This document shows positions 1-17,239 of a stretch of 20,059 bases of DNA, in pieces. The translations under genes were made by a program, and so were the position numbers. Numbering within the stretch: position 1 is the first letter of the stretch; each line of letters opens with the position of its first letter. The stretch lies in IMG/VR virus record IMGVR_UViG_2651869749_000005; one strand, given 5' to 3'. The notes under the pieces were generated by a model. That model saw only the letters and a list, made by a program, of their open reading frames with translations, was not told where the DNA came from and did no database searches. This DNA is from a virus. Taxonomy: Duplodnaviria > Heunggongvirae > Uroviricota > Caudoviricetes.

Positions 1-2
1 CT

Positions 3-14
3 GGGGGGGGGGGG
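3..14. repeat. 12-nt homopolymeric G tract at the window edge
   Basis: Direct reading: positions 3-14 are all G. It lies downstream (minus strand) of the I stop, where lambda would have J. Confidence 0.9.
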
Positions 15-87
15 CGCAAGACTGGCATGCGGAATAATTAAATAACAAACAGCCTAAAGCAATCACCGTCATAGCTGGCGGTGATTA

Positions 88-729
88 TCAGCGACCAATA
101 ACCACAACCTGACCACCATCCCCTTCATCTGCCGTGCTGATCTCCTGAGAGACCACACGTGACCCCACGCGCAGTTCACCGTACAGAACAGGCAGAACAT
201 TGCCCTGGGCAACCAGGTTATCCAGAGAGGAGAAATAGGTGTTCTGCTTACCATTATTCGTTGTCTGTGTTCGGGGAGTTTTGGGTCTGGGGGCCAGCAT
301 CTGGGCCACACCGCCAAGCGTCATACTGGCACCGAGAGAAAACAGCAGATTACTTGCCATAATTCCCACCCCAGGCATCCATATAGCAACCGCCATAACA
401 GCTGCGCCCAGCACGGCCTGAAACACGCCGCCACTTTTGGCTCCCGCCAGGCGCGGCACAATATGGATCACGGCACCATTTGACAGCGGTTCATTAAGAC
501 GGGCTGATAATTCAGTTTCACCTGTATCACGCCCGGCAATGCGTACCTGATACCAGCCGTCGCTCAGTTTCTGACGAAACGCCGGGAGCTGTGTGGCCAG
601 CGCCCGGATGGCTTCAGCCCCCGTTTTCACACGAAGGTCGATGCGGCGGCCAAATCGTTGTAAATCCCCGTAAAGGCAGATGCGTGCCATGCCCGGTGAC
701 GCCAGAGGGAGTGTGTGCGTCGCTGCCAT
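88..729 (-). CDS. I: Tail tip assembly protein I (lambda gpI-like)
   Basis: 213-aa ORF; N-terminus MAATHTLPLASPGMARICLYGDLQRFGRR and C-terminus NGKQNTYFSSLDNLVAQGNVLPVLYGE...VVIGR match my recollection of lambda I; overlaps the 3' end of K as in lambda. Confidence 0.9.
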   Translation of the reverse strand: MAATHTLPLASPGMARICLYGDLQRFGRRIDLRVKTGAEAIRALATQLPAFRQKLSDGWYQVRIAGRDTGETELSARLNEPLSNGAVIHIVPRLAGAKSGGVFQAVLGAAVMAVAIWMPGVGIMASNLLFSLGASMTLGGVAQMLAPRPKTPRTQTTNNGKQNTYFSSLDNLVAQGNVLPVLYGELRVGSRVVSQEISTADEGDGGQVVVIGR

Positions 730-1370
730 TTGTCGGTATACCTCTCTCGTTTGCTCAGTTGTTCAGGAATATGGTGCAGCAGCTCGCCGTCACCACAGTA
801 AATGGCGGCATGATTCGGCACCGATGAACCAAAACAGCACAGCAGCACGTCGCCAGGCTGCGCCTCTGTCAGTGCGACACGGTAAAAACCAGTCGCCTCC
901 ATATTGTCAAGATAGAGATTCTGACCGTTACGCCACCAGTCATCCCCGCGATGAAAATCCGGCATCTCAATCCCCGCCAGATGATAAGCATCCCGGAACA
1001 GCGTGTAACAGTCCGTCACCCCGTGCTCAAAGCGACGCCCGGTGAGATGCGGCACACAGCGGAACTTGTGAATCGCCCCCCGGCAGACCAGCCACCACGG
1101 CAAATCACTCTGCACCTGCAGCCGCCGGTCAGCCTCACTCAGCCAGGGCAGACCACCGGGGTGGCTGTGGACCAGCGCCACAATCTCACCCTGCATTTCT
1201 GCCTGCAGCCAGTCTTCCGGCGACATACGGAAATACGCCTCCGGCTCACCGGAGATATTCACGCAGGGGAAATATCTTTCCCCCTCCGGCGTGCTTACCA
1301 CGAAGCCGCACGACTCCGCTGGCGCACATCGTCTGGCGTGCGCCAGAATCGCTGATTCTGTCTGTGTCAT
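627..1370 (-). CDS. K: Tail tip assembly protein K (JAB/MPN metalloprotease-like plus NlpC/P60-like domains)
   Basis: 247-aa ORF starting MTQTESAILAHARRC; HSHPGG...SEAD motif (JAMM-like) and a Cys/His region (GVTDCYTLFRDAYH...HAAIY) typical of gpK; start 6 nt after the L stop. Confidence 0.88.
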   Translation of the reverse strand: MTQTESAILAHARRCAPAESCGFVVSTPEGERYFPCVNISGEPEAYFRMSPEDWLQAEMQGEIVALVHSHPGGLPWLSEADRRLQVQSDLPWWLVCRGAIHKFRCVPHLTGRRFEHGVTDCYTLFRDAYHLAGIEMPDFHRGDDWWRNGQNLYLDNMEATGFYRVALTEAQPGDVLLCCFGSSVPNHAAIYCGDGELLHHIPEQLSKRERYTDKWQRRTHSLWRHRAWHASAFTGIYNDLAAASTFV

Positions 1371-16618: not shown

Positions 16619-16843
16619 ATGTCATCAAAGAACAGAACCCGCAGAACAACAACCCGCAACATCCGATTTCCAAACCAGATAATTGAACAAATTAACATCG
16701 CTCTTGACCTGAAAGGTTCAGGTAATTTTTCAGCGTGGGTTATTGAAGCCTGCAGAAGAAGATTAATTAATGAAAAATATTCTCAATTTGTACCCAACAA
16801 AGACAAACACGACCAGAGCACCTGTTCAGACAGGTTTACTTAA
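16619..16843 (+). CDS. Small ribbon-helix-helix-like DNA-binding protein (possibly DUF3950-type; unverified)
   Basis: 74-aa plus-strand ORF; basic N-terminus, then RNIRFPNQIIEQINIALDLKGSGNFSAWVIEACRRRL, which fits a beta-strand/helix/G-x-S/helix RHH fold; GGGG 8 nt upstream of the ATG; followed by an intrinsic terminator. Confidence 0.6.
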   Translation: MSSKNRTRRTTTRNIRFPNQIIEQINIALDLKGSGNFSAWVIEACRRRLINEKYSQFVPNKDKHDQSTCSDRFT

Positions 16844-16924: not shown

Positions 16925-17239
16925 TTAGCATTTTTTTGACCGCGCGTTTCCGGACGTATTCTGTTCTCCTGTCCCTTTATATCGTCGGAATACCCGCCGC
17001 TCTTCAAATCCCATTCCCAACTCAGAATGTAGTCTGTTGACCGCTTGTTTTATTTCGGTCAGGTTCACCGGTGAAACCGGAGTCCGGCGCGCCTTACGCA
17101 AACACTCTGCTCGTTTCTGTGCCGCCACTTTTCTTTTCTGGTCATCACTTAGCTGTACCATCACTTTTGCCCATCGTTCAGCTGCTCTCCGGTACAGTCC
17201 TTTTTTCTCCAGACATTCTGCCACGTGATCATGTAGCAT
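16925..17239 (-). CDS. PerC-family transcriptional regulator homolog (Pch-like)
   Basis: 104-aa ORF MLHDHVAECLEKKGLYRRAAERWAKVM...; the LE.KG.WRRAA.RW signature matches my recollection of PerC/Pch regulators of EPEC/EHEC. Strong GGAGG SD 6 nt upstream; preceded by a roughly 460-bp AT-rich leader. Confidence 0.65.
   Translation of the reverse strand: MLHDHVAECLEKKGLYRRAAERWAKVMVQLSDDQKRKVAAQKRAECLRKARRTPVSPVNLTEIKQAVNRLHSELGMGFEERRVFRRYKGTGEQNTSGNARSKKC

Follow-up and report, generated by a model that had tools for sequence, protein, structure and literature searches.

A lambda-like tail module that stops after gene I very likely runs into a prophage sodC moron with a slippage-prone, assembly-breaking G-run

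Introduction

Why does a lambda-like tail module break off directly after gene I, in 87 nt that hold no recognisable start of J and a 12-nt run of G close to their outer end? The question is raised by the window, by which we mean the whole stretch of 20,059 nt of viral DNA that was analysed. Its minus strand carries a lambda-like head and tail module with the order, from right to left, P21-type holin, lysozyme, Rz, a PerC-like gene, Nu1, A ... H, M, L, K and I. A first-pass annotation had drawn attention to the 87 nt downstream of the I stop codon, to a minus-strand ATG at 72-70 and to the 12-nt G-run, all of which are present in the sequence, and had proposed a poly-G artefact of two-colour chemistry, a loss of J from a defective prophage, or a genuine homopolymer prone to slippage. 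We conclude that the module very likely ends within an ordinary prophage sodC moron, located antisense between I and J, that contains a slippage-prone and assembly-breaking homopolymer.

Results

Homology to lambda-type prophages ends at the I stop codon

The module closes with two tail tip assembly genes, K (627-1370, minus strand, 247 aa, Prok-JAB and NLPC_P60) and I (729-88, minus strand, 213 aa, Pfam Lambda_tail_I, E 1.1e-24), with K overlapping the start of I in a lambda-like arrangement. The DNA of I is 93-95% identical to I of E. coli prophages, and its TGA stop codon at 90-88 (minus strand) leaves exactly 87 nt to the window edge. A megablast comparison of the region from K through I to the edge with 5,426 complete E. 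coli genomes and 50,697 phage records yielded thousands of matches with identities of up to 95%, every one of which stopped exactly at the I stop codon, and a blastn search with the last 100 nt gave no useful match in the complete E. coli genomes or the phages. As homology stops at the I stop and the last 100 nt are without match, the 87 nt are neither a lambda-type I-J spacer nor the start of J. The earlier observation that no J start can be recognised here was thus correct, and none is there.

The 87 nt are the edge of a sodC cassette

Frame 1 of the plus strand at positions 1-45 translates as LGGGGARLACGIIK*, so that the window starts within the last 14 codons of sodC, followed by a TAA stop codon at 43-45. 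Only these 45 nt of sodC, cut by the window edge, lie inside the window, and the body of the gene was read from other strains, in contigs nearly identical to it. Seven IMG/VR contigs contain an exact 33-mer of the 87 nt, each time directly 3' of the same I gene, and in contigs reaching further the adjacent gene is encoded opposite to I and has a product of 173 aa. The full gene of these relatives matches Pfam Sod_Cu (PF00080; E 1.6e-32, 113 bits, cutoff 28.9), the NCBIfam SodC equivalog (214 bits, cutoff 165) and PHROG 1975, "superoxide dismutase precursor". Among solved structures it is closest to 6d52 and 1eqw, both of Salmonella SodCI (E 7e-68), the alignment extending through ...PAPLGGGGARFACGVI, and the window's own residues line up with PLGGGGARFACGVI of both structures. 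The C-terminal active-site loop G-G-G-G-A-R-x-A-C-G, with the catalytic Arg and the disulfide Cys, is present in the window, and the N-terminus of the relatives reads as a Sec-type signal peptide, MIKKILAVTALLSGAVMA/DT. Judged by these family and structure matches, the sodC product (173 aa) is a Cu,Zn superoxide dismutase, presumably periplasmic, with a predicted Sec signal peptide.

The G12 homopolymer (3-14, plus strand) codes for the conserved Gly-Gly-Gly-Gly of SodC: its first G closes a Leu codon, three GGG codons for Gly follow, and its last two bases open GGC. It had been described as lying at the window edge; its length of 12 nt is as reported, but the run does not touch the edge, since CT precedes it. 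A PstI/dG-tailing cloning junction was also considered and ruled out, as the sequence is CTG followed by the G-run and not CTGCAG.

Between the convergent stop codons of sodC and I lies a spacer of 42 nt (46-87), which is part of the cassette and has neither a counterpart in lambda or phage 434 nor a match in the complete E. coli genomes or the phage collection. With the 87 nt being the edge of a sodC cassette, the minus-strand frame of the first-pass annotation (72-1) is antisense to a real gene. This frame does begin with the ATG at 72-70 and stays open to the edge, but it reads MTVIALGCLLFNYSACQSCAPPPQ..., with Q where the earlier translation had a fourth P (...APPPP), and it encodes 27 aa in relatives.

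J follows sodC in near-identical contigs

Alignment of locus L004 to phage 434 and lambda revealed that K-I and J are ~94% identical, with a single insertion between them. In L004 the I stop codon is followed by 697 nt and then by ATG GGT AAA GGT GGC ACT AAG GGG CAT ACC CCG CGC GAA, which translates as MGKGGTKGHTPRE...; in the alignment with phage 434 and lambda the J start is MGKGGTKGHTPREVKDNLKS. The whole cassette (L004:3041-3737, 697 nt) is AT-rich and foreign in base composition, having 42% GC vs 59% in the flanking I and J. The I-J spacer comprises 60 nt in lambda and phage 434 and 697 nt in the relatives of the window, and for this reason the J start falls outside the window.

Searching with the exact I protein of the window retrieved seven contigs, five of which continue past I. 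All five carry an antisense Sod_Cu gene and then the start of J where the contig reaches J. The 254-kb contig L012 of GCA_013056845.1 contains a full-length J (1165 aa) in which the GpJ domain set is complete, and Lom comes next. Identity of the window with L012 is 99.94% across 6.7 kb; with L003 it reaches 99.98% across 9.8 kb and with L001 100% across 3.1 kb. The 87 nt of the window match the start of the I-sodC-J cassette without a difference. In the arrangement that we propose, the 697-nt cassette would replace the 60-nt I-J spacer of lambda-type phages, with sodC on the opposite strand. Past position 1 the body of sodC would continue as ...CACCTGCTCCTCT upstream of the run, and J would start normally at the far end of the cassette, beyond the window and on the other strand. 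From the near-identical contigs, J is very probably retained in the source genome.

L004 contains three further plus-strand ORFs (674, 159 and 66 aa) on the upstream side of sodC, the expected place of J, which we rejected as genes of the sodC strand as they lack family matches and are antisense to J. The longest, a 674-aa open frame at L004:415-2439 (plus strand), is an example of the long antisense ORFs in J that are not genes. J itself is missing from the ORF list of L004 only because it runs off the end of the locus.

The G-run is genuine and differs in length among assemblies

The run at 3-14 is the sole homopolymer of at least 10 nt in the window. We examined the state of the run in 40 independent loci and found the run itself or synonymous interrupted variants in these loci, which come from many projects; the G-run is genuine sequence. 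The commonest form in relatives is GGGGGGTGGGGG, and GGGGGGTGGTGG and GGGGGGGGGAGG occur as well, all being synonymous and 12 nt long; the G12 of the window differs from the common GGGGGGTGGGGG by one synonymous T-to-G change. Among the 40 loci the interrupted runs always have 12 nt, whereas uninterrupted runs of G10, G11, G12, G13 and G15 were seen directly in DNA, and a G14 run was inferred from the database protein P0001, all lengths being assembly calls, not reads. Even on one identical haplotype of 530 nt the run is G10, G11, G12, G13, G15, G6TG5 or G9AG2. G13 occurs in 10 places, including one contig common to 13 samples, and G11 in at least six contigs from independent samples. The recurrence of the same lengths in independent samples suggests that at least some of the G13 and G11 runs are heritable alleles rather than random miscalls.

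The length of the run determines how the protein ends. Annotated products terminate in ...GGGAQDWHAE (G11), ...GGGGAQDWHAE (G14) or ...GGGGRKTGMRNN (G13), and the frameshifted products ending in ...GGGAQDWHAE and ...GGGGRKTGMRNN lose the Arg and the Cys of the active-site loop. In the set of loci collected independently of the SodC sequence, one of six uninterrupted alleles has an intact frame vs all seven interrupted alleles (p = 0.005). Frameshifted SodC is most probably inactive, judging from the residues that are lost.

A second homopolymer is located outside the window, in codons 3-5 of sodC (ATG ATA AAA AAA ATA; L004:3173-3190, plus strand). A7 instead of A8 is found in eight of 34 full-length loci and in L019, the closed genomes CP117556.1 and CP117678.1 being included. 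A7 shifts the frame and truncates the signal peptide, which accounts for the 157-aa "SodC" annotations. On the 530-nt haplotype, nine combinations of G-run state and A7/A8 state occur.

These patterns are consistent with the following course of events. G12 would arise from GGGGGGTGGGGG by the single synonymous T-to-G change; the uninterrupted run would then gain or lose bases, probably by replication slippage, with miscalling by short-read and nanopore sequencing probably adding to the variation; and most changes in length would shift the C-terminal ARLACGIIK out of frame. Slippage at the run probably takes place in vivo.

Contigs tend to end at the uninterrupted run

Of the 10 contigs in which the run is uninterrupted, five stop inside it or no more than 14 nt away, vs none of the eight contigs in which it is interrupted (Fisher p = 0.036). 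The five are the window, L003, L017, L018 and L019, the last of which reaches the run from the J side: this contig, from another genome, begins in or just past the run and reads ...AGAGGAGCAGGTGAATCGG on the I strand. Several "partial" SodC proteins in the databases likewise finish at or just short of LGGGG. Because of this difference between uninterrupted and interrupted runs, the edge of the window is most probably a contig end caused by the homopolymer.

Expression signals and neighbouring cargo

A scan of the cassette detected no sigma-70 consensus promoter and no canonical terminator for sodC. The spacer contains a hairpin (61-86) in which 61-71 pair with 76-86 around a loop at 72-75. Folded in the sodC sense, this hairpin with its 11-bp stem has a centroid energy of -15.5 kcal/mol (z = -3.8), and it follows the sodC stop codon after 16 nt. 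The sodC strand has no T-run behind the hairpin, which was not called by the terminator scan; it may serve as a 3' stabiliser or mark the 3' end of the transcript, or be a weak terminator for both directions. We assume, by analogy with sodCI and sodC-F (PMC2569942), that the cassette is expressed independently.

At the other end of the module, between the lysis cassette and Nu1, the window carries a gene for a PerC-family transcriptional activator (16925-17239, minus strand, Pfam PF06069, E 3.8e-44), which looks like a second moron-like cargo, of the EPEC/EHEC-type kind, in the same prophage. It is adjoined by a 74-aa ORF with a DUF3950 domain (16619-16843, plus strand, E 1.3e-17) that lies opposite to the late genes.

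Other prophages carry sodC in the same slot

A tblastn search of phage genomes with SodC identified three kinds of relative. The closest phage protein is sodCIII of the Salmonella phage Fels-1 (STM0924), with 65.5% amino acid identity, whose gene, like that of the present cassette, is placed opposite to the late operon and exactly between lambda-like I and J genes. Both proteins share the C-terminal motif LGGGGARxACGxIK, whereas the flanks and the regulatory DNA are unrelated. The four Gly codons of Fels-1 are GGG GGC GGT GGT and form no long homopolymer, unlike the G12 of the window, and Fels-1 keeps the lambda/434-type hairpin AAACCGCCTCTGGGCGGTTTTGTCGTTT just upstream of J, whereas in the present cassette the whole spacer has been replaced. 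The Stx2a-converting E. coli phage Stx2_EH1846 encodes a SodC with 57% identity in the same antisense I-J slot, there with a longer intergenic region of 851 nt and with GGC GGT GGT GGT as Gly codons. The virulence-associated SodCI of the Salmonella phage Gifsy-2 (62% identity), the best structural relative (6d52, 1eqw), is likewise encoded antisense within the block of tail genes, but between lom and L instead of I and J, and its Gly codons are mixed. All four prophage sodC genes thus encode LGGGGAR, with a mixture of GGC and GGT in Fels-1, Gifsy-2 and the Stx2 phage. Beyond the coding region of sodC, no alignment is possible between the cassettes of the present prophage, Fels-1 and the Stx2 phage, which suggests separate acquisitions of sodC cassettes into the same slot, or their heavy turnover. 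The present allele is new; the kind of moron and the I-J slot are already known.

[quoted passage not shown] Together with sodCI of Salmonella these genes are established antioxidant or virulence cargo (PMC2569942). SodC-F of O157:H7 has a possible lipobox (PMC2569942); in the present SodC a lipobox is not possible, as its signal peptide contains no cysteine.

Public databases already list the protein as "superoxide dismutase [Cu-Zn] SodC", mostly in entries from Escherichia albertii and in some from E. coli, e.g. RN587/1 and O33. Many E. albertii genomes have the cassette, as do draft assemblies that bear the label E. coli. None of the 5,426 complete RefSeq E. coli genomes contains it, and an exact 33-mer scan of species-representative genomes gave no match. 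The tail module that accompanies it is otherwise 93-95% identical to those of common E. coli prophages.

Discussion

Several readings other than an intact sodC moron followed by J have to be weighed for the outer 87 nt of the window. A defective prophage from which J had been deleted or rearranged away, one of the original suggestions, would agree with the lack of a J start in the 87 nt, and the window by itself cannot show what follows. We nevertheless regard it as very improbable, since near-identical contigs carry sodC and then J: the 87 nt correspond to the start of the I-sodC-J cassette, every extending contig with an identical I has this order, and L012, which matches the window over 6.7 kb, has the complete J. 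A dark-cycle poly-G artefact of two-colour chemistry at the contig end might be suspected from the position of the run, 2 nt from the window edge, and from several other contigs that stop within it. This suspicion did not hold up, and the chance that the run arose in this way is next to nil: the strand pointing outwards ends in ...GCGCCCCCCCCCCCCAG, i.e. in poly-C followed by the authentic next two bases (AG), which match those of the relatives, the run keeps the reading frame of SodC and is colinear with its conserved Gly4 codons, and contigs from many projects that read through it carry the run or its synonymous interrupted forms. The remaining suggestion, a genuine homopolymer prone to slippage, is borne out by the many independent assemblies in which the run is present and variable in length. 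The minus-strand frame starting at 72-70, previously put forward as a candidate gene, could be imagined as a small lipoprotein-like gene downstream of I, as it begins with an ATG, encodes a hydrophobic N-terminus that includes Cys residues, is closed after 27 codons in relatives and is paralleled in Fels-1, where the alignment also shows an open antisense frame over the same sodC codons. It is, however, entirely antisense to the 3' end of the convergent sodC, which fills 1-45, and to the spacer; it has no Shine-Dalgarno sequence ahead of its ATG; the Fels-1 and Stx2 cassettes contain nothing that corresponds to its N-terminal half, the part outside sodC; changes in run length shift its frame as well; and every substitution observed is silent in sodC and alters residues of the ORF (P/T/T variants, A to V). 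As sodC occupies the other strand and the substitutions are synonymous for sodC only, we dropped the idea of a small lipoprotein, e.g. for superinfection exclusion. The frame is probably spurious, and its being a real gene is extremely improbable.

For the run itself two readings depart, in opposite directions, from a slippage-prone homopolymer in an ordinary moron. According to the first, the run would be real, but all length variation and all contig breaks would be technical, caused by Illumina phasing beyond long G-runs and by homopolymer miscalls of nanopore or 454 sequencing, with a stable G12 and an intact sodC in the cells. The sequencing platform is known to impair the quality of simple-repeat sequence (PMC6321876), contigs break off within the run after 12, 13 or 14 G, and A7 and G11 occur in closed genomes that are possibly long-read assemblies with nanopore homopolymer undercalls. 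On the other hand, identical lengths other than 12 recur in independent samples (G13 in 10 places, G11 in at least six contigs) and the A8 run, which is reliably read by Illumina, varies too. G-runs of at least 10 nt are, moreover, known to be prone to slippage in bacteria. We therefore consider a purely technical origin unlikely, though it retains appreciable weight. According to the second reading, the prophage sodC of Escherichia, mainly E. albertii, would be a true contingency gene, switched by high-frequency slippage at A8 in the signal peptide and at G12 in the Gly4 loop. Phase-variable genes with homopolymers form a class that is covered in PMC6321876, and like the contingency genes of Campylobacter, Neisseria and Haemophilus the present sodC has a coding poly-G of at least 10 nt that varies among strains and switches the frame. 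Coding homopolymers are indeed found in G12 and, in relatives, in A8 at codons 3-5, and their length differences switch the frame on an identical 530-nt haplotype. The present run is, however, located near the 3' end of the gene, whereas contingency runs are usually at the 5' end, and the length differences are here known from assemblies of different strains. As most alleles are interrupted, the run looks accidental, the result of one synonymous change, rather than maintained. The host genus has mismatch repair and few homopolymer loci of this kind. A limited literature search retrieved no relevant paper on a sodC homopolymer or on phase variation of sodC in Escherichia or E. albertii. Taken together, a true contingency gene appears rather doubtful, and an ordinary sodC moron between I and J with a slippage-prone, assembly-breaking run is the reading that we very much favour.

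What looked like a truncated tail module or an artefact is thus a well-precedented architecture, and its recognition avoids the false call of a defective phage or of a novel small gene. The locus also demonstrates that a single synonymous substitution can yield a homopolymer that splits assemblies and gives rise to "SodC2" and "partial" frameshift annotations in public databases. Prophage SodC contributes to the virulence of Salmonella and is implicated in the antioxidant defence of O157:H7 (PMC2569942). The interest that remains lies in a hypervariable coding homopolymer which originates from one synonymous change and probably inactivates, or possibly switches, a gene of the virulence type in many strains. 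If sodC were a true contingency gene, cells would differ at random in their periplasmic defence against superoxide, by a mechanism of which there is hardly any record in Escherichia. Should the changes in length be real in vivo, many sodC-positive strains of E. albertii and E. coli would have an inactive or switchable copy.
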